From Candidatus Moraniibacteriota bacterium (lineage in GTDB: Bacteria; Patescibacteriota; Minisyncoccia; Moranbacterales; UBA2206): a stretch of 64,000 bases of DNA. Made by a program: the position numbers and the translations under genes. The notes under the pieces are model-generated. The model saw nothing but the letters and a program-made list of their open reading frames with translations. It made no database searches and was not told the DNA's origin. Below, piece by piece: positions 1,598 to 64,000 of this stretch (the first letter of the stretch is position 1; every line of letters starts with the position of its first letter). Location: contig JBAQNU010000022.1 in NCBI GenBank assembly GCA_049304095.1, positions 2,348 through 66,347 of the forward strand. The letters run 5' to 3'.

Positions 1598-4105
1598 CTA
1601 GCGATTCATCTCAAAACTTTCCACTCCATCAGCACTCAAAAGATAGACTAAGCTATTTTCTTCATTCACACTAAAATCGTCGGCCTCGGCGATTTTTGCG
1701 TTATAGTATTGAGCCAGAATTTTCCCGTCATTGTCCAATTTCACCACTCGGGCATTGGCTTTATCTAGCACATAGAGATTAGCGGAATCTCTTTTGGTGT
1801 AGAGTTTTGTGAACTTGATTGATGTCGCGGTCTCTTCAATTGAGAACTCCACTTTTTTGCCGCGGAATAATTTTTGAATCTCGTTTTCGCTAGCCAAAAA
1901 AACATTTTCATTGATGGCCATATTTTTTGCATCAGCCAAAACCAACTCATCTTTGAGCCAGGCGGTTTTTTCTCCAAAACCGCCCTCCGCGCGAGGATAG
2001 CGATAGATCTGATTGTTTTTTCCGTCAAAGAGATAGGCATAGGTCAAATAAGTCTCGGCGGAGACAATCTCGGAATTTTCTGGAAAGGTGAGATTGTTGG
2101 GAGTGAATTTCCCCGTGGCTGGCGCGAGAGATGCGACGCGATTATTTTTAACCAGAAAAATTAAATTTAAATCATCCATGCCAAAAAACATTTGGGGATT
2201 TTGGAAATCAGTAGGAATCGCGATTTCTTTTTGGCTTTCCATATCAACTACTGCCGTACCCCTTAGAGCAAATAACTTTCCATTGAGATTCTGAATTTTT
2301 GTTAGGCCTGTACTGACAAATATTTCAGTAAGATCAGCTAGGCGTGTAACGTTTTTGTCTTCTTCTAGAGGTAGGGTGACGACTGGCGTTTCCACGACTG
2401 GTGCGGGCGTTTTTTCAGTTAGTTGTCTCTCCCAGCGAGAAATCCAATAGGGGACGACCAGAAGAAGAAAAAGAATCGCAACAACAGAAATTTTTTGTTG
2501 AGCATTGAATTTTCCGATTAGTGTTTTCAGCTTGGAAAAATCTGGCCAAAGATGACCAATTTGAGCAGTCCAAGAAGTTGCCTCAGTTTTTTTGCCAGCA
2601 AAAATACCACGTCGACTTTTGGCAAAAAAAGTTTCGACGTTTTCTTCGGCGGGAGCTTTTTTAGGTGTAATGAGACTTTTTTGCGCGTTGCGTTCTTTTT
2701 GTTTTTTAGCATAATAAGCTTTGGCAAAAGTGCTGGTGCGCAGAAAAAATTTAGCAGGCCAGCGCAAGATTAAAATAGAAAGATCAACAAATTTTTCCCA
2801 GAGCCAGATGGAACCCGCCTTTATCTTCGGCGCATAATTTTGATATATCAGTCGTAGAGATGTGGCACTGCCACGTCTTTCTTTCGACGCAGATGGCACT
2901 TCTTCGGCGCCCACTTCCTTTTGCAAATTACTGCGAATCAGCGCTTCTAGCTCATCGGAAGTTTTTTCTTTTTTAGTTTTAAATTTAGGGGTAGTTTCTT
3001 TGAGATAGCGTGTGAAAGCTTGTGTGGTGCTTTGAGCTGTTTTTCCAAAGGCCACCGCCAAAAAAGCAAGTTTTTCTTTTGCATGTGAAAAATCAAAAGC
3101 CGGTAAGCTAAAGCGGGAAGTTGGATCTTCCAAGGGGGTAGGGTTTTCTTTCAGATAGATGTGTCCAGTTTTTTTATCAACAAAATCAGCTCGTGCTTCT
3201 TCGTTAGCGGGGGCTGTGGTATCTTCGGTTGGTTCCGTAGAGACACATTGCAATGTGTCTCTACCATGCGTCGGGGTGTCCTCATTAGGCACTGTTGTGT
3301 CTCTACCGTCTTTAGGTTTAGGCTTTTTGGACGCGCGAAACGCCGCTTGACTGAAAGCATTAAATGCGGGCGTTTTGGCGGGAGTGGAACTGGAAGCTTC
3401 TAGCTCCTCAACCTCCGCGACGTCAACTACCAGTGTAGCGACTTGATCTAGTTCGTTCACCAGTGCGGTATTGAGAAACTGGATGAAATTTTCGCGGGAA
3501 AACTTGAGGGCGCTTTTTTTAATTTCTTCTAGCGAGAACAACTCAAAAAGTTCTTGAGTGGTGAAAAAAAGCTTGTCGCCGTTTTCTATTTTTCCTGAGA
3601 TGACATCTTGAAAAGTTTTGAGCGGACTGATTTCCATTTCCTCCAGTGGGTTTTCGGTTATTTCAACAAGAGCGTTTTTGCGTAGGAGAAATGCGGAGGC
3701 GGTGCCCGTTACGGAGAGGAGCAGATTATTTTTTTCAATCACGGCGCAAACGGCGTTGATGTGGCCAATCCAATTGATGTTTTCATGAGTAGCAAGACCA
3801 GCGAGAGCCAAGTTAGCTTTGTGTAGGGCTGCTTCAAAGTTTTCCACCGGACCACGATTGGTCTTGGCAAAATATTCTTTTTTGATGACGGAAATGAGAT
3901 AGTTGACGATGTAGGAAGAGTCTTCGGAATAATCGTTAATCTGAAAAATACCCACGAGAATCCCCAGATTTTTGCGAGAAATGTTTTCTGGCTCTTCAAT
4001 TAAAATTTCCAAAAAGGGGCGATTTTCTTTTTTCTTGCAAATCAAAATATTTTGAAAATTTGGTTTCAAAGAGACAATTTTTTTGTCCAATTTTCTTTTG
4101 GCCAT
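1598..4105 (-). CDS. Membrane protein: N-terminal PP2C/SpoIIE-like (possibly degenerate) domain, one TM helix, C-terminal extracytoplasmic domain
   Basis: The 861-aa ORF runs to 4183, but the likely start is MAKRKLDKK at 4105. The segment NAVCAVIEKNNLLLSVTGTASAFLLRKNALVEI resembles the RsbU/SpoIIE core (YANAGHNPPLLLR) with GH replaced by GT. A hydrophobic helix ISVVAILFLLLVVPYWI is followed by about 280 aa. Confidence 0.45.
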   Translation of the reverse strand: MAKRKLDKKIVSLKPNFQNILICKKKENRPFLEILIEEPENISRKNLGILVGIFQINDYSEDSSYIVNYLISVIKKEYFAKTNRGPVENFEAALHKANLALAGLATHENINWIGHINAVCAVIEKNNLLLSVTGTASAFLLRKNALVEITENPLEEMEISPLKTFQDVISGKIENGDKLFFTTQELFELFSLEEIKKSALKFSRENFIQFLNTALVNELDQVATLVVDVAEVEELEASSSTPAKTPAFNAFSQAAFRASKKPKPKDGRDTTVPNEDTPTHGRDTLQCVSTEPTEDTTAPANEEARADFVDKKTGHIYLKENPTPLEDPTSRFSLPAFDFSHAKEKLAFLAVAFGKTAQSTTQAFTRYLKETTPKFKTKKEKTSDELEALIRSNLQKEVGAEEVPSASKERRGSATSLRLIYQNYAPKIKAGSIWLWEKFVDLSILILRWPAKFFLRTSTFAKAYYAKKQKERNAQKSLITPKKAPAEENVETFFAKSRRGIFAGKKTEATSWTAQIGHLWPDFSKLKTLIGKFNAQQKISVVAILFLLLVVPYWISRWERQLTEKTPAPVVETPVVTLPLEEDKNVTRLADLTEIFVSTGLTKIQNLNGKLFALRGTAVVDMESQKEIAIPTDFQNPQMFFGMDDLNLIFLVKNNRVASLAPATGKFTPNNLTFPENSEIVSAETYLTYAYLFDGKNNQIYRYPRAEGGFGEKTAWLKDELVLADAKNMAINENVFLASENEIQKLFRGKKVEFSIEETATSIKFTKLYTKRDSANLYVLDKANARVVKLDNDGKILAQYYNAKIAEADDFSVNEENSLVYLLSADGVESFEMNR

Positions 4106-52932: not shown

Positions 52933-55900
52933 ATGGGTTTCATAGTTGAAATCATTCAGAATATTTCAGCATTTGTCGGACAGAAAGTCTCGACCATATC
53001 GACCGCTATCTCGGGGATAGGGGAGTTTTTTGGTGGGGATTTTTTCACTGATTTGTTGGCTTTTTTTGCCGTGCCATTTGTTCTAGCAAAAAGTTTTGTT
53101 TTGACAGTCTTTTCAGTCATACAAAAAACAACAGTTGATGCATTCAATAGTTTGGGTAATTTTTGGGAAATAATTAAAAATAGTCTAGTTGATTTTGGAG
53201 CCAGTATAAGCCTAGTTTTCCAACTGATTAAGAACAATGTTGCGGATCTTTTTGCCGGCCTTGTGGTTTCGCTGGCGAATAGTATCACAGCGGGAGAGCT
53301 TTTTGTCGAGGCGTTGGCAAAAAATATTAGTGATTTTGGCGCTTTGGTTTTTTCGGTTGTAAAAGACAGTTTAACTGGTTTTCCTTATGCCGTTTCGGCA
53401 ACAGTTATTGCGGGCCTGCTATTGGCAGTGGTGCTTTTAATGTTGACAGAGAAAATACTGGTTGTATTTGATGCGTTAGATTTGATGGTAATCAAAAAAA
53501 ATGTCAAACAATTTTTTGGAAAAACAATAATCAAACAAAGAGCAGAAAAGCAAGCTACTCCAATTGTCATGCCCAATGTGCAACCAATTTCTTTTGCCCA
53601 AGCATTTGTCGTTGTATCATTTTTAGCTTTTTTGGCATATAGTTTACCCCAAAAATATCAATTGGCCTCGCTTTCGCCATGGCTACAGCGTAGCGAGGGA
53701 ATCAACTCTGATGCTGGCGAAACAAGCCAAGACGGTGGTTACCAGGGTAATATGAATCTTACCCCTACAGAAATTCTTGGCGAAACCACCCAAGAAACCC
53801 TCTCCCTCCTAGCAGAATCTAACCCTAATCTTTATCAGCTGCTCAACGCTGGTGTACAAAGACGTAGCAATGCTACGTCTCTACAGCTAGGCATGATTAC
53901 CATCAATCCTCAGGGTCAAATTTTTCTATTACCAAAATCGATTAGTTCTCGTGAAATCAAAAATTATGTAATCAAAAATATTGATATCGCCGATCATGCT
54001 ATCACTTCCCGAACAATCAAAAACCACACCATCAGGTCAATTGATCTCAAAAGAGAGCTCACCATCGAGGAACTGAAAATTGATCACAATCTCACCGTGC
54101 GTGGCAATCTCATTACCGAAGGAACATTGATTGCTGTAGACATGAATCTCTCGGGTAACCTAGATCTGCAAGATAATCTAATGCTTAACATTGGCAATCA
54201 AAACACAGACTTCACCGCTAGTGGCGGACTAAATCTGGCTGGCAATCTCAACATCAACAACAATTTTCTAGCTAATGCCACTACTGGTAACATCACCGCT
54301 GGAACATACAATGGCAACACTATCACCAATGGTACCGGCACACTAACATTAAACGAGCATACTCTCACCCTCACCAACAACACTCAACTCAATCAAAATC
54401 TCCTCACCACTTCCACTCCGCAGTTTGCCAGATTGGGACTGGGAGTTCCAGCCGACGCCACTAACATTCTCACCGCCACTTCATCCTCCACCACTGATCT
54501 TTCGAAAACTCTAAATATTTCTCACACTGGAATCATCACTGGCACGGGTTATGCCGGATATTTTTCTAAAACCGGAGCGTCAACCACTAATGTGGGACTC
54601 TATACGATCGCCACCGGAGCAACCAATAACTATGCGTTACAGGTTGATTCGGCCGTAGTAGGAGCAACTAATTATACAATCTATGCCAATGGTGTGGCAA
54701 AAAATTATTTCGCGGGCAATATCGGCATAGGGGACGCTGCGCCTGGTACAAATCTCTCCGTCATTGGTAATGCGCAAATTGGATATGCATCCGGTACAAC
54801 CGTTTCGGCTGGCACGTCACTAGCAATCTCGAGCAACGTCGGCATCGGGACGACGGGGCCTGGGGCGAAGTTGGAAGTCTATGGAGGAATGGCATATTTT
54901 ACCGGTTTAGATTCAGTTAATGCCAATGGCAACGGCCTTGGTATTTTTGGTGGGAATGACACGGGTGGTATTTATATGAGAGGAGATAATAGTGGAACCA
55001 ATAATTTGTCGTTGGGAACTAATATCGGTGATATTTCATTTAAAACTGGCAGTGGAGCTGGGACGGATAGGATGATAATTCAAAACGGAGGCAACGTCGG
55101 CATCGGGACGACGAGTCCATTGGCAAACCTGCACATTCTTGGTGGAGCATCAAGCAACGCCAGTATGCGAATGGAGTCTGGTTCAGGAAGGTATGCTGGT
55201 TTCCAGATGTACGATGGGAATATTGGAAATAGCTGGGCCGTTGGACATGAGTTTGCGGCGACAAGTAATGCGTCACTGGTCTTTAGTTACGGAAATGTTG
55301 GCAGTGAATCTGTTGTAGCCAAAGTCTCAAGTACAGGCGGATTTACCCAGATAGGTAGCGGTGTTAATTCATTCGTAGGCAACGTCGGCATCGGGACGAC
55401 GGGGCCGGGGTATAAGCTGGATGTTGTTGGTACTTCAGGAAATGCTTCAGTTCTTCGAGTTTCAGGAGACCTTTATCCTGAGATTGCTTTGAAATATACA
55501 AATAATGCGGTCGACAATCTTTCAGCTCTCAGGTTCTACGACGAAGCAAATAATTGGAAGTGGATGATTGCTAATTATTCTGATGCTTATTCAACAGCGT
55601 CAATGCAAAATTTATTTGCTATTTATCAAAGAACTAATTCTGGCGATACGAATGTTAATGCATACAGGCTGGTTATTGACAATACCGGCAACGTCGGCAT
55701 CGGGACGACGAGTCCGGGGGCGAAGTTGGATATTAATGACAATTCAGGTGGAGCGGAAATTCCTTTTAAATTGCGTGTTTCTGACAATGCTAATGATTAT
55801 TGGCAAATTTCTAATGCTACAGGTGGTGCTGGATTATTTATTCCCACATTTAAAACTAAAGTAGATACAGCGAGTTATACAGGAGGACTAGGCGGTGATG

Positions 55901-58900
55901 GCACTGGGACTTCTGGCTCTACATTTGTTGCGGCAGTAAATGACGTTGCTTATTCAAGCGGTTATTATGCGGGGGCGGCTATGGCATTTGAAGCCAGAAA
56001 TTATGCGGAAACAGGAGCGTTGTCTAATAGAAACTTATTTAGTTGGACTAACTGGTATGCCAACAGTCCCTTAATGGTTATAAATCCGAGCGGTAATATT
56101 GGAATGGGATATTCGAATCCAGGAACAGCGAAACTAGCAATAAACGGCAACGTCGGCATCGGGACGACGAGTCCGGGGGGTAAAGTGGTTATTGCTGGTG
56201 GGGAGAGTAACACTGCATTATTGGGTGCAGTTGCTGGTAATACTTCTAACGCTTTAATCAATCTTGCCAGAAGTTCTGATGGTATAGTATTTCATGGATT
56301 AAGATTAGACGCTTCTGATAATTTGCATTTTGATTATCGTAAATCATCTGACGGAAGTCCACAAACAGCAATGACCATTGATAGAATAAGCGGCAACGTC
56401 GGCATCGGGACGACGGGACCAGGAGCAAAATTTCAAATCTACACCGGAGACGGAACAAGTGGTCTGCGCACCAGTCTCATCTGTTCTAACTCTACCACCA
56501 GCAAACTCTACACTGATGCCAATGGAAATATGATTTGTGGCACTGATCAAACTGGTAGTGGCACCGGAAATCTTGTTGATACTCTCTCTGCCACCTTAGG
56601 AGCAGGCAATGACGCTGGGGGACTGGGGATGATTAATCTGGGGAATGTGGGGATTGGGACGACGAGTCCCATCGCTAAACTCCATAGTGTTGTTGCTGAT
56701 GGTGTTTCCTTTGCAATAGGGCTTTCGGGCACCACAAAAGGACTTCGCGTAGAAGCAGATTCAACCTCAATGATTATCCGCGGAGTTGATACTACTCTTA
56801 CGGGTTCTTACCAACCACTTCGTTTTGGTGGATCTGATCTTCGTTTTGAAACAAATGGGACAACTGAAGCAATGCGGATTCTTTCAAATGGCAACGTCGG
56901 CATCGGGACGACATCGCCAAATACCGCACTTCATGTTCACTCTGCAAACGGAGTGGTGGATTCCTTTGGCAATCTGATGGTCTCCACTAATGATGCAGTG
57001 GCTATAAATAAAGGTGGATACCTTACTTTTGGAGGAAGCTGGGACGCAGGAGGCGGTTCGTCAACATTCGGTGGAATTGGCGGACGGAAAGAAAATGTTA
57101 CTTCCGGTGACGCCACAGGATATTTGATGTTCTCGACTTCAAATTCTGGTTCAACTTTGACTGAGAAAATGCGGATTACATCCAGTGGCAACGTCGGCAT
57201 CGGGACGACGGGGCCAGGGGCGAAGCTGGAAGTGGCAGGTGCTGGTTCTGCTAACACAATAAAACTTAAAGACACAACCAACCCTTACACTACACTTTTT
57301 ATGGGGGCACAGCAGTTCGTTACTAATCGAAGTCCAATAGATGGCGTTTTTGAAGATGTGAATAAAGCAGCCGCCAGTGTAATCTTAATTTCGGGAGTTG
57401 GAAATTCAGCCGTAACATTTAATACTCATACATCAAATAACACGAATCCATTGGAAAGGATGCGAATCAATGGCGACGGCAACGTCGGCATCGGGACACC
57501 GTCACCGTTGGCAAAACTTCATGTAGTAGGTAATTATGATAATGATGGTACTGGAGGTATTCTGCTTGATGCACTTTCTGGTTCTCCAGATATATATAGT
57601 TTAAGAATAAATCCTTTTGTTGTAGGTAGTCAAAAAGTTGGTTATCAATTCCAAACAAAAAGTGTATCTGGTGGGACAAATGTTCCATTGACATTTGATA
57701 ATAGTGGCAACGTCGGCATCGGGACGACGAGTCCGGGAGAAAAACTTTCTATCTTGACTGGTGCCTTAGAACTCAAAAGTAGTGCCTTTAATACATCAAA
57801 CAATAGAATCTATTTTACGAGACATCAAGTGGGTAGTACTTATGGCGGAATTGATTGGCGAGATAGTGCGGGTACGGTTCTATATCAAGTAGCGAGTGGT
57901 GTTTTGGTTGGTAATGGCATTGAATTTAACGAAGGAGACGGTGTTAATAATAGGATGTATATTCAACCCGGCGGCAACGTCGGCATCGGGACGACGGGAC
58001 CGAGTTCGAGGTTACATGTCCAGAGCGTTTCAGGGAGCACTGAAAATACACGTTTTGCAAATAATGATTTTGTTATTGGGTCTGTAGGTACAGAACTGAA
58101 AGTAAGTTTTGGAGCTGCAAGTGGTAACACGTATGCAATTTTGAATGCTTTGAATAGTGGTGAAACGGCATGGACTAATCTGGCCCTACAAACAGGCGGA
58201 GGCAACGTCGGCATCGGGACGACGGGGCCAGGGACAAAACTGCATATTTATGGTACCACGGCTGCTACCGTACAAACTATAGAAGGTGTTGGGGGCGGAG
58301 TGAGTGCTGGTCTTGTTATTAAAGCTGACACAACTGGGCAAGCTGGAATTCAACTTTATGAGAATAGTACGCAAAAATGGAACATATATAAAACCGCTGA
58401 TGCGAATGGCGATTTGCGCTTCTATTCGCTTGGAGCACTAGCTGATGTGTTGACGATAAAAGAAGCAAGTGGCAACGTCGGCATCGGCACGACGGGGCCA
58501 CTCAATCTTCTTCACCTGAAAAAAGGAACAAACTTAAATCTAATTTTAGGTAATCAAAATGTTCAAAGTGGAGCAACGGCCATGTCAATTGTGGCAATTG
58601 ATGATGGCTACACCACAAACATTCCATTGGAATTTCACGCTTCAAAGTTTTATTTCCATAGCGGCAACGTCGGCATCGGGACGACGACGCCGAATATCGG
58701 GCTGGAAGTCGTGAAAGATAATGGAAATGGTTGGACGGCTTTGTTTAGGAGCGCTGCCAGCAGTGAAGGCGTCTTTTTGGGAACAAGGTATACTCATGCA
58801 ACCGTTCAAGGCATCTCTGGTGATTTAGGTTCGCTCACAGATTTATTGATAAATCCACTCGGCGGCAACGTCGGCATCGGGACGGCGGGGCCGACATCTA

Positions 58901-61900
58901 AATTGCATATATATGGAGCTGATGACCCGACAAACGGCCAGCTGCGCATAGAAAGTTCTGGCGCTGACGCTCGTATCGAGTTGGATAATAGCAGCGCTAA
59001 TAGATATTCATTGAATTTCTCCGCTTCTGCAGGATATGAAGGTCTGCGGTTTATGTATAACAATTCCGATAAAGTGATCTTTGATGAAAACGGCAACCTC
59101 GGCATCGGGACGACGAGTCCGGGCTCTGCGTTGGATGTCAATGGTTCAATAAACATTCCTTCGACTGGTGATTACAAGATGAATAATATTGTTCGCATAG
59201 CTGGTGGAGGAACTTTTTATTCTGCTGTTGGTACGGCAGCAGCGCCGAGCTATGCTTTCGGTGCTGATGTGGATACTGGTTTATTTCTGACCGCATCCGG
59301 GTCTAACGCGATTGGATTTTCGACAGGTGGGACAGAGGCAATGAGAATAACTTCGGGCAACGTCGGCATAGGCACCACCACACCAGGAGCCACCTTGGAC
59401 GTAAATGGAAGAATATTTGGAGCAAACGGAACTGCTGCTTTACCAAGTATTTCATCACGTGGAGAAAACAATGCTGGATTATTCTTTGGCGATGACGGAG
59501 TTGGTTCGTATCTTGGTTTTTCTGCTGCAGGATCAGAAGGAATACGTCTTAATCGTTTTGGCAACGTCGGCATTGGTACGACGGCGCCAGGATCGTTATT
59601 CACAGTAGCGGGAACAATAAGATCAGACACAAGTGGAACCCCCGAAGTGTATCTAAATAAATCGGGGACTCGTGGATGGTCTATCCGTAACGATGGAGCG
59701 TTTAATATATATAATTGGGAAACTGCCACAAATCAATTGACGGTTTTGAATAGCGGCAACGTCGGCATCGGGACGACGACACCACAAACGAAACTCGATG
59801 TGGCAGGGACAATTCGCGCTACTGCTTATTCTACTCCTACTTCTGGTACGGGGGTTGAAATTTTATACGGAGCACAGGCTGCGAATACGGGAAATATAAT
59901 TGCATATGATAGAACTGCATCTGCATATAAACCGCTTACTCTTGATGGTTCAACGATATTGTTAAATGCGTACAACACAAGCGGCAACGTCGGCATCGGG
60001 ACGACGAGTCCGGGGGCGAAGTTAGATGTTCGTTCTGGTACTAACGCAACATTAAATTATCCGACAGGAGATTGGGCAGCAAAGGTTTTCATGCAAACAG
60101 ACGCTTCGACTTCAGGCGGATTAGTAGTTGGTAACAGATGGCAAGATAATACTTCAACAATATTTGAAGCAGGAAGTCTTTATGGAAGTGGTAGCGCATG
60201 GGCGTCTATGTTTGTGATCAAAGGTCAAGGCAACGTCGGCATCGGGACGACGAGTCCGGGGGCAACTCTTGATGTCAATGGGACTTCTATTATTCGAAAT
60301 AATACAATATGGAAGGCTGGAGCAGGAAACAATACTAATCTAATTAGTTATTCTGGTACAGATGATGGAATATTCCGCCAATATTCTGGTGGTATAATAA
60401 AAAATCAACTATTTGCTGCTGGGGACAGTTATTTCAATAGCGGCAACGTCGGCATCGGGATAGCGGGACCACAGGAGAAATTGACTGTTGCAGGTAATCA
60501 ATTATTTGCATTAGCTCCTGATGTTGGTTCCTATGGAAAATTGGAAGCAGCCTATGGAGGAAATATTGCAACTTATGGCGTAGCAGCAAATATTGATTTT
60601 TATAGACCCGTTGCAGGTAGCGGGAATGAGGGGGAAATAAGATTTAGTACTAACCCTGGAGGTGGTGGCGTTGGTAGTTTGACCCAACGAATGGTAATAG
60701 ATAAGAGCGGCAACGTCGGCATCGGGACGACGGGACCAACCAATCTTGTTGAAATTCAGGGCAATACTACAGGTACTGGTGGGACAGGTTCAGTTTTATA
60801 TGTAAAACAAAATGCTAGTTGGACAGCGAATGAGCCTTACTCACTAAATGTTTCAGGTTATTCAAACTTAAATGGATTCAGAATATCTGGACCGGGTGTG
60901 AGGAGTTTGTATAGTGGGGCTTCTGGTTCTCAGATTGAGTTTGCGACTCACTTTGGTTTTATTTCATTCGCTGGTGGTAGCCAAGGAACCGATCGGTATA
61001 TGACAATTCAAAACGGCGGCAATGTCGGCATCGGGACGACAGCTCCTGGTTACAAATTACAAGTCTACACCGGCACCGCCAATGGCTATGTTAATTCCGA
61101 TGGAACTTGGGGTTCCAGTTCTGATCTAAATTTGAAAAAAAACATCTCTTCTGTTTCTTCTGTCCTAAACAATGTATTAGCTCTTAATCCAGTTTTATAT
61201 AATTTCAAAACAGAAAGAAACGGAACAACTCCCCATATCGGTTTTGTTGCCCAAGAAGTGGAAAAACTCTTTCCCGAACTAGTCTCCACCGGACCAGATG
61301 GTATAAAGGGAATCAGCTATGCTATGTTTACCCCACTTCTCACTAAAGCGATTCAACAGCAACAAACTCAAATCACAGGCATTGCGGACAATCAAAACAA
61401 AATCGTCGAGCAACTGACCAATCAACTTTCCTATCAACTTGCGGACAAAACAATTTCCATCGATACTAAAATAAACCTGATTGGGGCGAGTCTGGACGAG
61501 TTAAACCAGGAACAATATGATCAACAAATCAAAAGAATAAAGGGGCAAATAGAGGATAATACCGGCAATTTAACGCTTTTGGATGCCAGATTGAAACTGT
61601 TGGAAACAGTGCTCACACTGGATAGTAATAACCTGAAAGTCATCGGTGATATTTCTGCCAACAACCTGACGCTCAGCGGAAAACTAGATGTGGACAGTGC
61701 GGTCGCCGGCGCCTTTGCTGTGAAAGTTAGCGCGGATAAACCTAAAACAATCGGTGAGGCATATATTTGCCCCGCAGGCTTCGCGGGAGATGCTTGTGAT
61801 ACGTCAGACGCTTCCAGCGATGGAAAATCAATCCTGGTGCAAACTTCAGCCGTCTCAGCCAGCGCCAAAATTTTTGTCACCCCCGAAAATGATACAAATG

Positions 61901-62022
61901 GTAGCGTTTGGGTGGAGAAAAAAAGTGACAATTCCGGGTTCAAAATTATGCTAAAACCATTGACGCCAATCCTCGAAAAGATTAAAATAAATTGGTGGAT
62001 TGTGGAGAAAATTTCGGACTAA
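52933..62022 (+). CDS. Giant (3029 aa) membrane-anchored fibre-like surface protein: N-terminal TM region, beta-helix-like Asn/Thr-rich segment, about 25 GNVGIGTT(S/G)PGAKL-type repeats, C-terminal phage-tail-fibre intramolecular-chaperone (peptidase S74-like) domain
   Basis: Three hydrophobic helices fall in the first 240 aa. About 25 repeat units of 65-105 aa each begin SGNVGIGTTxPxxKLxV. The C-terminus SSSDLNLKKNISSVSSVLNNVLALNPVLYNFKTERNGTTPHIGFVAQEVEKLFPELVSTGPDGIKGISYAMFTPLLTKAIQQQ matches the SD(x)RLKxNI...IGxIAQEVxxxxPExV...Y...LxxAxQ pattern of self-cleaving tail-spike/endosialidase chaperone domains. Confidence 0.85.
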   Translation: MGFIVEIIQNISAFVGQKVSTISTAISGIGEFFGGDFFTDLLAFFAVPFVLAKSFVLTVFSVIQKTTVDAFNSLGNFWEIIKNSLVDFGASISLVFQLIKNNVADLFAGLVVSLANSITAGELFVEALAKNISDFGALVFSVVKDSLTGFPYAVSATVIAGLLLAVVLLMLTEKILVVFDALDLMVIKKNVKQFFGKTIIKQRAEKQATPIVMPNVQPISFAQAFVVVSFLAFLAYSLPQKYQLASLSPWLQRSEGINSDAGETSQDGGYQGNMNLTPTEILGETTQETLSLLAESNPNLYQLLNAGVQRRSNATSLQLGMITINPQGQIFLLPKSISSREIKNYVIKNIDIADHAITSRTIKNHTIRSIDLKRELTIEELKIDHNLTVRGNLITEGTLIAVDMNLSGNLDLQDNLMLNIGNQNTDFTASGGLNLAGNLNINNNFLANATTGNITAGTYNGNTITNGTGTLTLNEHTLTLTNNTQLNQNLLTTSTPQFARLGLGVPADATNILTATSSSTTDLSKTLNISHTGIITGTGYAGYFSKTGASTTNVGLYTIATGATNNYALQVDSAVVGATNYTIYANGVAKNYFAGNIGIGDAAPGTNLSVIGNAQIGYASGTTVSAGTSLAISSNVGIGTTGPGAKLEVYGGMAYFTGLDSVNANGNGLGIFGGNDTGGIYMRGDNSGTNNLSLGTNIGDISFKTGSGAGTDRMIIQNGGNVGIGTTSPLANLHILGGASSNASMRMESGSGRYAGFQMYDGNIGNSWAVGHEFAATSNASLVFSYGNVGSESVVAKVSSTGGFTQIGSGVNSFVGNVGIGTTGPGYKLDVVGTSGNASVLRVSGDLYPEIALKYTNNAVDNLSALRFYDEANNWKWMIANYSDAYSTASMQNLFAIYQRTNSGDTNVNAYRLVIDNTGNVGIGTTSPGAKLDINDNSGGAEIPFKLRVSDNANDYWQISNATGGAGLFIPTFKTKVDTASYTGGLGGDGTGTSGSTFVAAVNDVAYSSGYYAGAAMAFEARNYAETGALSNRNLFSWTNWYANSPLMVINPSGNIGMGYSNPGTAKLAINGNVGIGTTSPGGKVVIAGGESNTALLGAVAGNTSNALINLARSSDGIVFHGLRLDASDNLHFDYRKSSDGSPQTAMTIDRISGNVGIGTTGPGAKFQIYTGDGTSGLRTSLICSNSTTSKLYTDANGNMICGTDQTGSGTGNLVDTLSATLGAGNDAGGLGMINLGNVGIGTTSPIAKLHSVVADGVSFAIGLSGTTKGLRVEADSTSMIIRGVDTTLTGSYQPLRFGGSDLRFETNGTTEAMRILSNGNVGIGTTSPNTALHVHSANGVVDSFGNLMVSTNDAVAINKGGYLTFGGSWDAGGGSSTFGGIGGRKENVTSGDATGYLMFSTSNSGSTLTEKMRITSSGNVGIGTTGPGAKLEVAGAGSANTIKLKDTTNPYTTLFMGAQQFVTNRSPIDGVFEDVNKAAASVILISGVGNSAVTFNTHTSNNTNPLERMRINGDGNVGIGTPSPLAKLHVVGNYDNDGTGGILLDALSGSPDIYSLRINPFVVGSQKVGYQFQTKSVSGGTNVPLTFDNSGNVGIGTTSPGEKLSILTGALELKSSAFNTSNNRIYFTRHQVGSTYGGIDWRDSAGTVLYQVASGVLVGNGIEFNEGDGVNNRMYIQPGGNVGIGTTGPSSRLHVQSVSGSTENTRFANNDFVIGSVGTELKVSFGAASGNTYAILNALNSGETAWTNLALQTGGGNVGIGTTGPGTKLHIYGTTAATVQTIEGVGGGVSAGLVIKADTTGQAGIQLYENSTQKWNIYKTADANGDLRFYSLGALADVLTIKEASGNVGIGTTGPLNLLHLKKGTNLNLILGNQNVQSGATAMSIVAIDDGYTTNIPLEFHASKFYFHSGNVGIGTTTPNIGLEVVKDNGNGWTALFRSAASSEGVFLGTRYTHATVQGISGDLGSLTDLLINPLGGNVGIGTAGPTSKLHIYGADDPTNGQLRIESSGADARIELDNSSANRYSLNFSASAGYEGLRFMYNNSDKVIFDENGNLGIGTTSPGSALDVNGSINIPSTGDYKMNNIVRIAGGGTFYSAVGTAAAPSYAFGADVDTGLFLTASGSNAIGFSTGGTEAMRITSGNVGIGTTTPGATLDVNGRIFGANGTAALPSISSRGENNAGLFFGDDGVGSYLGFSAAGSEGIRLNRFGNVGIGTTAPGSLFTVAGTIRSDTSGTPEVYLNKSGTRGWSIRNDGAFNIYNWETATNQLTVLNSGNVGIGTTTPQTKLDVAGTIRATAYSTPTSGTGVEILYGAQAANTGNIIAYDRTASAYKPLTLDGSTILLNAYNTSGNVGIGTTSPGAKLDVRSGTNATLNYPTGDWAAKVFMQTDASTSGGLVVGNRWQDNTSTIFEAGSLYGSGSAWASMFVIKGQGNVGIGTTSPGATLDVNGTSIIRNNTIWKAGAGNNTNLISYSGTDDGIFRQYSGGIIKNQLFAAGDSYFNSGNVGIGIAGPQEKLTVAGNQLFALAPDVGSYGKLEAAYGGNIATYGVAANIDFYRPVAGSGNEGEIRFSTNPGGGGVGSLTQRMVIDKSGNVGIGTTGPTNLVEIQGNTTGTGGTGSVLYVKQNASWTANEPYSLNVSGYSNLNGFRISGPGVRSLYSGASGSQIEFATHFGFISFAGGSQGTDRYMTIQNGGNVGIGTTAPGYKLQVYTGTANGYVNSDGTWGSSSDLNLKKNISSVSSVLNNVLALNPVLYNFKTERNGTTPHIGFVAQEVEKLFPELVSTGPDGIKGISYAMFTPLLTKAIQQQQTQITGIADNQNKIVEQLTNQLSYQLADKTISIDTKINLIGASLDELNQEQYDQQIKRIKGQIEDNTGNLTLLDARLKLLETVLTLDSNNLKVIGDISANNLTLSGKLDVDSAVAGAFAVKVSADKPKTIGEAYICPAGFAGDACDTSDASSDGKSILVQTSAVSASAKIFVTPENDTNGSVWVEKKSDNSGFKIMLKPLTPILEKIKINWWIVEKISD
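54825..61050 (+). repeat. Intragenic repeat array: about 25 copies of a near-identical 24-nt core GGCAACGTCGGCATCGGGACGACG spaced 200-300 nt
   Basis: The core is repeated with identical codon choice (GGC AAC GTC GGC ATC GGG ACG ACG), whereas the intervening sequence is divergent. It is GC-rich relative to the genome. Confidence 0.85.
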
Positions 62023-62033
62023 ATTTAGGGGGT

Positions 62034-62107
62034 GGCCATATCACGATTTCTCGCCAAAATGCCAAAATGTTGTGAAATCGTGAGATATGGGCGTTGTGAA
62101 ATCGTGA
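62034..62107. promoter_or_regulatory. Cluster of GAAATCGTGA decamer repeats (one inverted, two direct) just downstream of giant gene
   Basis: CCATATCACGATTTC...GAAATCGTGAGATATGG is an inverted pair. GTTGTGAAATCGTGA occurs twice, 24 nt apart. GCCAAAAT occurs twice in the loop. Confidence 0.4.
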
Positions 62108-62145
62108 TACGGGTCCATTATTGAAATGAAAGAAACACAACAAAA

Positions 62146-62166
62146 AAATCGACAAATTGTCGATTT
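62146..62166. repeat. Perfect 21-bp palindrome AAATCGACAA-A-TTGTCGATTT
   Basis: Intergenic. Another candidate protein-binding site. Confidence 0.35.
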
Positions 62167-62290
62167 GAGAGAAAAAAATAATATTGTAGGGACAGACCTC
62201 GTGTCTGCCCAGAAAGCTAGAACGCTCGAATCTCCACCCCCAACTTTTGTTTGAAAACTTGTTTTATCTGCCGAATCTCTTCTTTTATTT

Positions 62291-62576
62291 ACCCCCACAC
62301 CAATTATGTTTTACGTATACATCCTAAAAAGCAAAAAAGACAAAAACCTATACACTGGCTCGACAAATGATTTAGCAAGGAGATTTGCTGAGCACAATAG
62401 TGGCAAAGTTTTTTCAACAAAACTACGCAGACCTTTCGAACTGTTGTATTATGAAGCATATAAAGCAGAAGGAGATGCCAGAAAAAGAGAACATAACCTT
62501 AAACTAAGAAGCAGAGCATTGGCACAATTAAAAAAACGATTAGAAGCAAGTTTGCAAACATAATTGGTGTGGGGGT
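62291..62576 (+). mobile_element. GIY-YIG mini-cassette bracketed by perfect 18-bp inverted repeats
   Basis: ACCCCCACACCAATTATG at 62291-62308 and CATAATTGGTGTGGGGGT at 62559-62576. The left repeat contains the ATG and the right repeat contains the TAA of the enclosed ORF. Confidence 0.45.
62306..62563 (+). CDS. Stand-alone GIY-YIG nuclease-family protein (UPF0213/YhbQ-like)
   Basis: MFYVYILKS...KNLYTGSTNDLARRFAEHNSG carries the GIY...YIG and Arg/Glu/Asn catalytic core; 85 aa. Confidence 0.8.
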   Translation: MFYVYILKSKKDKNLYTGSTNDLARRFAEHNSGKVFSTKLRRPFELLYYEAYKAEGDARKREHNLKLRSRALAQLKKRLEASLQT

Positions 62577-62896
62577 GAATCTTCTTGTGCTTTGACATAG
62601 CCGTCAAGTGATATTTGACCATCGTTTATATCCGTTTTAAGTTCGTCTCTCACTCGATAAAGTTCAGCGCTTAATTCCTCTCGCACGTCATTAATATCAG
62701 ATTTCAGTTCATTTCTGACAATATGCAGTTCTTCCCTCAAATCAACTTCCAATTTATTAAAACGATCATCTACCTTGTTGAAGCGACCATCTACCTTGTT
62801 GAAGCGACCATCAATAGCACCCAAGATAATTTGAGTCTGTTCCGCAAGATCTTTATGGGTAACGTATGTAGTTTTAACTTTATTTTTCTTAAGCAT
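62540..62896 (-). CDS. Hypothetical coiled-coil protein containing a 21-nt tandem repeat (DGRFNKV x3)
   Basis: Heptad-rich 118-aa ORF. CATCTACCTTGTTGAAGCGAC is repeated 2.3 times at 62767-62812. The C-terminal codons run into the right inverted repeat of the GIY-YIG cassette. Confidence 0.4.
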   Translation of the reverse strand: MLKKNKVKTTYVTHKDLAEQTQIILGAIDGRFNKVDGRFNKVDDRFNKLEVDLREELHIVRNELKSDINDVREELSAELYRVRDELKTDINDGQISLDGYVKAQEDSPPHQLCLQTCF

Positions 62897-62924
62897 ATTT
62901 TAATTTTAGCGTAAGGCTAATCCC

Positions 62925-64000
62925 ATGTCAAACTTAGATAAACTCCCCATGAGCGTCGAAAAAAAAGACGTTCCCAAAAAGAATTTCCTGGAAATCACGT
63001 GCCCAAATTGTCATGGCACCAATTTTGTCAAACGCGGAACACGTCAAAAGAAAAACGAAATTGTTCAACTCTATCTTTGCAATGATTGCCAAAAAACGTT
63101 CACTCCAGGAGCGACCAAGGGCAAGCACTATCCAATTAGTGTTATTCTCGATGCAATTAGTTTGTACTATATTGGGTATAGTCTTGAGGAGTCTGTAAAA
63201 AGAGCTAGTCGAATAATTGATGCGAATAAAGAAAATATTATTGACAGGGCGACGTTGTTGGATTGGATCAATGAGTACGAACCTCTCTGCGCATTCGCCC
63301 GCATGCGCCCCCACGCCCTAAAACTATTTCCACCTGAACAAACGATCTCCAGCGCCACATTGGCACACCGCCAACTCTACCGTTTCCGCCATCACCGCTC
63401 AAAAACAATTCTCATCATCCAAGAAGACTGGAAACATAGCAAGTTTTGGCCCTTGAAAGAATTTTTGGATCTCGTGCCCGTTGAATGTCCTCACCAATAC
63501 TTCCAAGAAGGTGCTCGCGCCTCGGAAACACCACTGATGTTTTCCAAAACGGAAATGATTGTGCGCGGAAAACACAACTTTGCTAACAAGATGGCCAAAT
63601 TTGTCTTGGAATCAGTGGAAGAGCCGAAAGCTCGCCACGACGCCCTGCAGAGATTTATGTTGGCCAATGACAGCGTGACCATCGCCACCGAAGTGCCAAT
63701 TTATCTACGAAGAGAAGATTTGGAACATATGCAGACGCAACTTGGTTTCGAACTCTACAAAAAACAAACAACAGAAGAAAAAAAAGCTAACAAAGACATT
63801 GAAAAATATCCGGCTGAGGATTTGCCAAAATTGATCACTGGCCACATCGACTTCGTCCAAGTTAGAAACGGTCAAATTCACATTCTCGACTACAAACCGA
63901 ATGCTGCCAAAGAACGGCCAATTGAGCAACTGACAATTTACGCCCTGGCATTATCTCGCCTGACGGGATTAAAAGTTTTCAATTTCAAATGCGCCTGGTT
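62925..64000 (+). CDS. Zinc-ribbon + RecB/Cas4-like PD-(D/E)xK nuclease-domain protein (3' end outside window)
   Basis: Open frame from ATG 62925 to the window end. It is absent from the ORF track because it has no stop. N-terminus CPNCHGTNFVKRGTRQKKNEIVQLYLCNDCQKTF is a Cys4 ribbon of IS1 InsA-like shape. C-terminus ITGHIDFVQVRNGQIHILDYKPN...QLTIYALAL gives the D / D-x-K / QxxxY nuclease motifs. Confidence 0.6.
   Translation, partial: MSNLDKLPMSVEKKDVPKKNFLEITCPNCHGTNFVKRGTRQKKNEIVQLYLCNDCQKTFTPGATKGKHYPISVILDAISLYYIGYSLEESVKRASRIIDANKENIIDRATLLDWINEYEPLCAFARMRPHALKLFPPEQTISSATLAHRQLYRFRHHRSKTILIIQEDWKHSKFWPLKEFLDLVPVECPHQYFQEGARASETPLMFSKTEMIVRGKHNFANKMAKFVLESVEEPKARHDALQRFMLANDSVTIATEVPIYLRREDLEHMQTQLGFELYKKQTTEEKKANKDIEKYPAEDLPKLITGHIDFVQVRNGQIHILDYKPNAAKERPIEQLTIYALALSRLTGLKVFNFKCAW

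Follow-up and report, generated by a model that had tools for sequence, protein, structure and literature searches.

The closest published system to the one considered here is that of the Ssn ssDNA nucleases (cd10448). These single-domain GIY-YIG proteins, ~94 aa long, bind ssDNA and cleave it beside the NTS/SRM hairpin repeats that flank their own genes (PMC11893778). The authors who described them have pointed out that the NTS-ssnA-NTS arrangement looks IS-like and resembles REP/RAYT (Chenal et al., 2025; PMC11893778). In CPR bacteria, GIY-YIG ORFs are reported in rRNA-gene insertions that belong to neither the group I nor the group II introns (PMC11270868). Our locus lies in a 64-kb stretch of DNA from a Candidatus Moraniibacteriota bacterium (hereafter, the window), in which a sequence-only reading had noticed an 85-aa stand-alone GIY-YIG ORF exactly framed by perfect 18-bp inverted repeats and had proposed a self-contained mobile mini-cassette, an invertible cassette, or an mRNA helix sequestering the start codon. 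The repeats are probably the terminal inverted repeats of a self-contained mobile cassette of ~294 bp, with the GIY-YIG nuclease as its only gene. It has a stem that covaries across relatives, discrete limits and miniature derivatives, and the window copy truncates a host gene at a site that is empty in other genomes. The cassette family is widespread in CPR/Patescibacteria and also occurs in MAGs assigned to other phyla; in the literature that we searched for GIY-YIG combined with Patescibacteria/CPR, MITE, REP or terminal inverted repeats, we found no description of it.

Table 1. Features of the cassette and of its insertion site in the window (L labels denote loci of relatives used for comparison)
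Feature	Position	Strand	Basis
Whole cassette, ~294 bp	62287..62580	+	L208 lacks the cassette; homology limits of the L002/L063 paralogues coincide with the arm ends
Left arm: ATTTA + core CCCCCACACC + variable inner part AATTATGTTT; holds the start codon	62287..62311	+	
Single-domain GIY-YIG nuclease gene, 85 aa	62306..62563	+	Pfam PF01541 match, E = 2.3e-18
Right arm: AAACATAATT + GGTGTGGGGG + TGAAT; holds the stop codon	62556..62580	+	
Host coiled-coil gene truncated by the insertion, 118-aa ORF	62540..62896	-	Comparison with L208, L090 and L207
Orphaned 3' end of the coiled-coil gene, old stop CTA at 62217-62219	62217..62285	-	With the cassette removed, aligns with the 3' ends in L208 and L090
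Terminator-like hairpin of the coiled-coil gene, cut off by the cassette	62146..62166	-	Consensus scan; hairpin at the same position in L090

The repeats are as first reported and extend further. The 18-mer ACCCCCACACCAATTATG lies at 62291-62308 on the plus strand and its exact reverse complement at 62559-62576, the two forming the perfect core of arms of 25 nt each that are complementary at 24 of 25 positions and separated by 244 nt (repeat finder; Table 1). Both codons said to overlap the repeats do so, the ATG at 62306-62308 within the left arm and the TAA at 62561-62563 within the right. Even with up to three mismatches allowed, ACCCCCACACCAATTATG matches the 64-kb window only twice, against a chance expectation of 0.08, and two matches were reached in 0 of 100 shuffles; this, together with the recurrence of the repeats around 68 of 94 relatives, rules out a chance origin. 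The core 11-mer of the arms likewise occurs only twice in the 64 kb, the arms are not self-complementary, and the window holds a single copy of the cassette, whose ends are fixed to within 3 nt. A split, permuted or intron-bearing tRNA was considered because the left arm (ACCCCCACACCA) resembles a tRNA 3' end, and was rejected, since neither ARAGORN nor Rfam detects a tRNA there; the likeness is of relevance only for those copies, elsewhere, that adjoin tRNA genes. A known RNA family, intron or riboswitch at the site is similarly ruled out, as Rfam gives nothing at 61950-62950 at E <= 1 other than a chance miRNA match outside the cassette. To the left, positions 52933-62022 hold a 3029-aa ORF with dozens of GNVGIGTT(S/G)PG-type repeats, which probably encodes a giant surface protein.

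The encoded protein matches the Pfam GIY-YIG profile over residues 1-71 with 66.7 bits (cut-off 22.6), contains no further domain in its 85 aa, and carries the conserved catalytic Tyr, Tyr, Arg, His/Asn and Glu of the superfamily, with Y3, Y5, Y16, G18, R26, H30, N31 and E62 at least 97% conserved in 120 homologues. Its best solved-structure matches are the UPF0213 proteins 1zg2 and 1ywl (1.4e-7); a phage or defence protein family was set aside after no PHROGs or PADLOC match was obtained, and exact-protein look-ups for the window protein and for P0122 returned nothing on record. As a single-domain GIY-YIG protein it is of the Ssn format (about 90-100 aa), and it is 33% identical to gonococcal SsnA over 70 residues. 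HMM scores, a missing C-terminal motif and missing SRM flanks all speak against membership of the Ssn family (cd10448). Of the five Ssn sequences used to build an HMM, one is the authentic gonococcal SsnA (94 aa), whose gene has 12 dRS3/NTS repeats in its surrounding 1.5 kb, and four come from mislabelled or plasmid records; on this HMM the cassette family scores 41-48 bits as compared to 155-171 bits for Ssn members. It scores 55-62 bits on a UPF0213 (YazA) HMM and 150-165 on its own, and hhalign relates it to Ssn with E = 2e-13 and to UPF0213 with E = 5e-17. The Ssn C-terminal motif KKWxRxWK...NPxWxDL is absent from the cassette protein, and the SRM regular expression (HGTCWY...RNCYNB), which found 7, 4 and 2 matches beside the Neisseria, Azospirillum and Aeromonas ssn genes, matches at 1 of 94 cassette-family genes and at none near the window gene. 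Nor are the cassette arms short, multi-copy hairpins, each self-contained on its own flank, as in Ssn. Judged from these sequence comparisons, the cassette protein forms a clade separate from Ssn and is Ssn-like in outline only.

First, the inverted-repeat bracket is a trait of the family, and its two sides covary. A one-genome-per-species scan returned at least 411 relatives, of which 80 loci with 54-77% protein identity were fetched; most come from CPR lineages, and a few from MAGs labelled Elusimicrobia, Bdellovibrionales, Nitrospinota, Omnitrophota and Gammaproteobacteria. Close protein matches (69-87% identity) also occur in MAGs assigned to many phyla, and the MAG taxonomy may overstate this spread. 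When the best inverted repeat was sought within 70 nt on either side of each of the 94 homologous ORFs in the 80 loci, 68 had one scoring at least 12, shuffle maxima being mostly 8-12. The arms measure 12-28 nt with a mode of 21, and the whole unit 277-351 bp. Registered on the core, 59 distinct elements share a stem composed of an A, ten conserved outer bases (CCCCCACACC) and ten variable inner bases, with sharp limits beyond which the sides are unrelated. The consensus of the outer core is ATTYA-CCCCCACACC; the inner ten bases are lineage-specific, each column containing three or four different bases, and yet they are 83.7% complementary, compared to 44.7% (maximum 51%) with partners permuted. 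For a formal covariation count we used the 50 of 59 elements with unambiguous registration in a gap-free alignment. Paired cells amount to 92.6% versus 72.3% in shuffled sets, a percentage biased upwards because the elements were picked for having a repeat, whereas cross-lineage covariation is free of this bias: changes fall on both sides in 17 of 21 pairs, and the covariation score is 0.506 versus 0.145 shuffled and at most 0.109 in slid registers. Arm variants follow protein lineages. Just outside the core, position -12 of the 59 elements usually has TTTA on one arm and TTCA on the other (combinations T,C 12; C,T 9; T,T 11; C,C 0), the window arms having ATTTA and TGAAT at the stem base; this pattern may represent a conserved wobble or mismatch.

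Second, the cassette is a discrete unit that gives rise to miniature copies. Two loci (L002 and L063) each carry two paralogues on one contig that are alike only from outer arm end to outer arm end. Their ORFs differ with pS of 0.57-0.62, pN of 0.055-0.12 and pN/pS of 0.09-0.21, and their arms are identical, which argues that the protein is under purifying selection and that the arms are more constrained than synonymous sites. The mobile interpretation had been expected to fail if the 18-mer occurred nowhere else and relatives carried the gene without flanking repeats; the opposite is seen, for the exact 18-mer ACCCCCACACCAATTATG recurs in 87 metagenome stretches and relatives carry the repeats. 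In the 80 of these stretches that were loaded as loci, 65 arm pairs fall into two size classes, 33 with an ORF (282-316 bp) and 32 ORF-less (31-135 bp), the latter keeping the stem. Among genome loci, short ORF-less hairpins such as ACCCCCACACCAAC-CCG-GTTGGTGTGGGGGT are found in L018, L025 and L067, and ORF-less units of ~130 bp in L009 and L056. In the L147 copy the opening and closing codons of the ORF are still present, as ATGTTTTAT... and ...AAACATAA, which makes it an internal-deletion derivative. One composite flank, with a left part of ~60 nt and a right part of ~85 nt, encloses a full cassette in L140 (1207-1640), but miniatures of identical loop orientation in L148, L150 and L179. Full and ORF-less copies stand in the same relationship as autonomous transposons and their MITEs. 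The ~60-nt left part of the L140-type composite repeat has a 13-bp palindrome of its own. Viral contigs were also scanned for short ACCCCCACACC-N(0-30)-GGTGTGGGGGT hairpins, and the nine matches are uninformative because they are generic GC-rich, terminator-like hairpins with no GIY-YIG gene.

Might the arms instead be the ends of a different transposon, whose transposase is encoded elsewhere and for which the GIY-YIG gene is only cargo? That GIY-YIG nucleases are not known transposases, and that the arms persist without the ORF, would suit such an arrangement. However, across many phyla the arms are found only around this protein family or around nothing, their variants track protein lineages, no DDE-type target duplication is seen, and an unsystematic look near the 80 loci revealed no recurring transposase gene. 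We consider the cargo scenario very unlikely.

Third, relatives possess the window site in empty form, the kind of site that the sequence-only reading had proposed to look for. Collinear relatives were reached through homologues of the neighbouring Zn-ribbon/PD-(D/E)XK protein, and one of them, L208, is ~86% identical to the window in nucleotides on both flanks of the cassette, window 61500-62288 aligning with its positions 2913-3687 and window 62580-62644 with its positions 3710-3774. The junction in L208 reads ...CTCTTCTTT[CATAATCACAAATTCCTGCTTAAAG]TCTTCCTGCGC..., the bracketed 25 nt being intact coding sequence, and that in the window reads ...CTCTTCTTT[TATTTACCCCC...cassette...GGGGGTGAA]TCTTCTTGTGC.... 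These 25 nt encode part of a coiled-coil protein (...GYVKAQEDFKQEFVIMKEE...GVEIRAF*) that is full length in L208, L090 and L207; L090 aligns across the same junction and is likewise empty. Homology of the window coiled-coil protein to these relatives ends after GYVKAQED, at which point L208, L090 and L207 go on as FKQEFVIMKEEI...GVEIRAF*, and its last 12 codons (SPPHQLCLQTCF*) come from cassette sequence, while the orphaned 3' end and the terminator hairpin are still recognisable to the left of the cassette. The minus-strand coiled-coil ORF does run into the right repeat, as had been noticed, and it reads through this arm because the cassette inserted into that gene. The window cassette thus appears, from the alignments, to be an insertion that truncated a host gene, replacing ~25 nt with no target duplication. 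Since the empty-site relative belongs to a different population (~86% identity), we can only infer the direction of the event, insertion and not loss, from the intact frame in three relatives.

The window copy has no significant direct repeat that would qualify as a target-site duplication, and 25 nt of target are lost; most other copies have none either, direct repeats of 10-17 nt occurring only at tRNA sites. An imperfect TCTTCTT repeat beside the window cassette was ruled out as a target-site duplication because both of its copies are separate homologous segments in the empty site. L089, a candidate empty site with 95% PD-(D/E)XK identity, was dropped as it is not collinear at the cassette position. 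It does share with the window a 76-nt non-coding block (window 62036-62112), containing the direct repeat GTTGTGAAATCGTGA and inverted partners, that is 98.7% identical between the two, as against ~86% nucleotide identity for the flanking PD-(D/E)XK gene of L089. In L089 the block lies directly 5' of a 231-aa gene with a faint Y1 transposase match, and it may be the end of an IS200/RAYT-type element. The Zn-ribbon/PD-(D/E)XK protein itself (window 62925-64000; also L089, L090 and L206-L208) has ~2,900 homologues, is transposase-like according to some sources, and has a different neighbourhood in each of these relatives; in L090 the PD-(D/E)XK and coiled-coil gene pair is rearranged, with its 5' end duplicated. 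The spot looks like a rearrangement hot spot.

Beyond the window, copies occupy a variety of contexts. The gene for the protein P0101 is present on 23 contigs. In every case it fits exactly into the gap between an ABC permease stop codon and the start of the ATPase gene that follows in the same operon, and it has the same orientation in all sampled copies; this shared context indicates that many cassette copies are stable residents. One may then ask whether the cassette is a resident, Ssn-like host system, in which the nuclease would cut, for example, incoming or replicating ssDNA at a hairpin motif and the repeats would serve as recognition or regulatory sites of a unit no longer mobile. The stability of the P0101 locus over 23 contigs would be in keeping with this, as would the architectural parallel with NTS-ssnA-NTS, the strong purifying selection on the protein and the dependence of CPR bacteria on DNA uptake. 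Yet the motif is not dispersed, occurring only twice in the 64 kb of the window and seldom away from the gene in the 480 kb of loci; a host gene is truncated by the window copy and RNase P RNA is interrupted by another; and the protein falls outside the Ssn clade, with the SRM pattern absent. A resident system thus seems to us decidedly unlikely, and we retain the mobile cassette as the preferred reading.

Some 15-20 of the 94 genes lie directly 5' of a tRNA gene on the same strand. At these copies the tRNA begins with the outer G-run of the right arm, which supplies its first 1-7 nt, and a segment of 10-17 nt, made up of leader and tRNA 5' end, is directly repeated to the left of the left arm, for which a target duplication, an att-like crossover and an RNA decoy are candidate readings. 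The repeated leader/tRNA 5' segment forms a local hairpin with the left arm (L052, L069, L060, L033, L068, L034, L030 and L041, at ~2950-3300). In L043, L068, L032 and L120, several GIY-YIG paralogues sit between genes of tRNA arrays, some of which share no more than 37-50% identity with the query and have no detectable arms. Two further cassettes, in L023 (470-2582) and L032 (1-2074), reside in the 16S-tRNA-Ile spacer of an rRNA operon. Finally, the class-A bacterial RNase P RNA gene at L046:2850-3490 carries a whole cassette, lodged where helix P12 has its terminal loop: the RNA model (positions 1-367) is stretched over 641 nt with 308 bits, and in the alignment the core arms of the cassette make up the P12 stem.

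The ORF tends to share the orientation of its neighbours, in a ratio of 42:16 for the upstream one and 39:18 for the downstream one, and the interior of the unit leaves almost no space for a promoter, which suggests that the ORF may be expressed by read-through transcription. The same figures bear on the proposal that the segment is invertible (phase-variable), being flipped by recombination between the arms. Inverted repeats do bracket the gene, and both window arms contain ATG/CAT. On the other hand, no recombinase gene is found within 10 kb, the region 52,933-64,000 being filled by the giant ORF, the cassette, and the coiled-coil and PD-(D/E)XK genes; the 42:16 bias speaks against free flipping; and a single orientation is seen both in the loops of the three composite-flank miniatures and in all sampled P0101 copies. 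This part of the sequence-only reading is extremely improbable.

To what extent, then, does the stem act in RNA? The complementarity might be no mobility signal and have its main use in transcripts, where the paired arms could form a stem for RNase III-type processing, as in rRNA intervening sequences, or a helix covering the start codon. The 25-bp stem dominates the predicted RNA fold of the window cassette (MFE -74.3 kcal/mol, z = -2.7); it does so in RNA and DNA alike, on either strand. The typical stem of ~21 bp spans about two helical turns, the 42:16 co-orientation implies co-transcription with neighbours, and copies are found in an operon, in an rRNA operon spacer, 5' of tRNAs and in the RNase P RNA P12 loop with the arms as the P12 stem, all of which are compatible with a function in transcripts, as are the GIY-YIG ORFs in non-intron insertions of CPR rRNA genes (PMC11270868). 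A translational role as the main function is not supported. In the majority of relatives the ATG lies 1-30 nt beyond the end of the left arm, and the stem is kept in ORF-less copies, which together indicate that translational control is not a general function and that sequestering the start codon is not the primary role. A stem selected in RNA normally shows an excess of G:U over A:C, and none is seen in the coding-strand arm mismatches (G:U-type versus A:C-type: 19 versus 19 in genome loci, 8 versus 6 in metagenome loci, 27 versus 25 overall), which speaks against strand-specific RNA selection. A purely RNA-level role would moreover leave the homology limits, the spread and the empty site unexplained. 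We regard it as unlikely, and would sooner see the RNA stem as bringing a secondary benefit than as a competing explanation: to judge by the copies that reside in operons, in the rRNA spacer and in RNase P RNA, it is at least tolerated and probably helpful.

The self-contained mobile mini-cassette, the first of the earlier proposals, is thus the one that finds support, through arms that covary and recur around 68 of 94 genes, homology limits, ORF-less derivatives and an empty site. As for how such a cassette might move, we reason largely by analogy. Both arms could pair within one strand into a stem with the gene in its loop; the nuclease, by analogy with Ssn, may recognise and nick its own stem or similar hairpins in ssDNA; and host repair or replication would then copy or re-insert the unit, with the miniature copies mobilised in trans. 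A break-and-repair route of this kind is suggested by the Ssn analogy, by the lack of a target duplication and by the loss of target bases. As a probable side benefit of the stem, the cassette would act as a closed stem-loop in transcripts and so do little harm in operons, pre-tRNA leaders, an rRNA spacer or an RNase P RNA loop. GIY-YIG enzymes hydrolyse DNA and are not known for strand transfer, a point against the model at the integration step. The single copy in 64 kb, the missing target duplication and the stability of P0101 in 23 contigs also count against the mobility model.

A bolder idea, which we put forward tentatively as possible, is that the cassette represents an undescribed class of prokaryotic mobile element, the smallest autonomous one at ~0.29 kb, whose nuclease would act on the ssDNA stem formed by its own ends and which would spread by break and repair and not by transposase chemistry. 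If this were so, the zipping of its ends into a helix would allow the cassette to live in essential RNA genes (RNase P RNA, rRNA operons, pre-tRNA leaders), and nature would hold a large set of matched small nucleases and 21-bp stem targets. If autonomous, an 85-residue nuclease and two arms of 21-25 nt would suffice for persistence and spread across much of the CPR radiation, in a cassette well below the size of any insertion sequence known to us. The Ssn discovery, that small GIY-YIG enzymes recognise ssDNA hairpins, would also gain a second clade, one in which the geometry differs and the evidence for insertion is direct. That ten stem positions vary freely and yet remain paired points to many natural nuclease/stem pairs, of possible interest for ssDNA tools. 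The cassette may further explain the 'GIY-YIG nuclease family protein' genes common in CPR annotations, as well as the GIY-YIG-bearing insertions in CPR rRNA genes, and the RNase P RNA copy provides a concrete case for how streamlined genomes tolerate selfish DNA in essential RNAs.

How does the cassette compare with known systems? By solved structure and HMM, its protein is closest to UPF0213 (B. subtilis YazA; PDB 1zg2, 1ywl), the gene for which lies between trmNF and rsmI in both Bacillales records examined (Radiobacillus and B. subtilis), its neighbours giving no sign of insertion. With the GIY-YIG homing endonucleases, such as I-TevI and the T4 Seg proteins, the cassette shares the nuclease fold and selfish spread; T4 SegB is located in a tRNA gene cluster. 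Unlike the cassette, these enzymes have a DNA-binding domain (>200 aa), lack inverted repeats and move between homologous alleles, and no intron or intein was detected around the window gene, Rfam giving no intron at 61950-62950. The rRNA intervening sequences, stem-closed inserts in structural RNA genes, have a parallel in the RNase P RNA P12 copy of L046 and in the copies of the rRNA operon spacer, whereas the gene that holds the window copy codes for protein. The same element may account for the CPR rRNA-gene insertions with GIY-YIG ORFs; the paper on these insertions describes no repeats (PMC11270868).

The Ssn systems share with the cassette a stand-alone GIY-YIG protein of 85-95 aa that consists of the catalytic domain only, and an inverted bracket of C-runs and G-runs, ATTCCC...GGGAAT in Ssn and ATTYACCCCC...GGGGGTRAAT in the cassette. 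In Ssn, either flank holds a short hairpin that is complete in itself and recurs in hundreds of copies, whereas in the cassette each flank supplies one half of a single long stem that has the gene in its loop, and few copies of the motif lie elsewhere. Set against Ssn, the cassette also shows insertion polymorphism and has miniature derivatives. REP/RAYT (REPtrons) and IS200/IS605 likewise combine a small nuclease gene with hairpin-forming repeats and non-coding hairpin copies, and recognition of ssDNA hairpins is the likely shared logic. Their enzymes, however, belong to the HUH Y1 transposases, which act through covalent intermediates; they end in subterminal hairpins where the cassette has one terminal inverted repeat, and REPs run to hundreds of copies.

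Lastly, the cassette resembles ISs and MITEs in its terminal inverted repeats of 21-25 nt that delimit the unit, its single gene, its internally deleted non-autonomous copies and its insertion into genes. It differs from ISs in that its sole ORF encodes a GIY-YIG nuclease and no DDE, serine, tyrosine or HUH transposase, and in that the window copy has no target-site duplication. The smallest IS that we know of, IS200, is ~0.7 kb, more than twice the ~0.29 kb of the cassette. Like an IS, it varies in presence and absence and occurs in multiple copies, the site being empty in L208 and L090, two copies lying on single contigs in L002 and L063, and the 18-mer recurring in 87 metagenome stretches. 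The 32 ORF-less copies of 31-135 bp correspond to MITEs, of which the window copy is the coding, full-length form.
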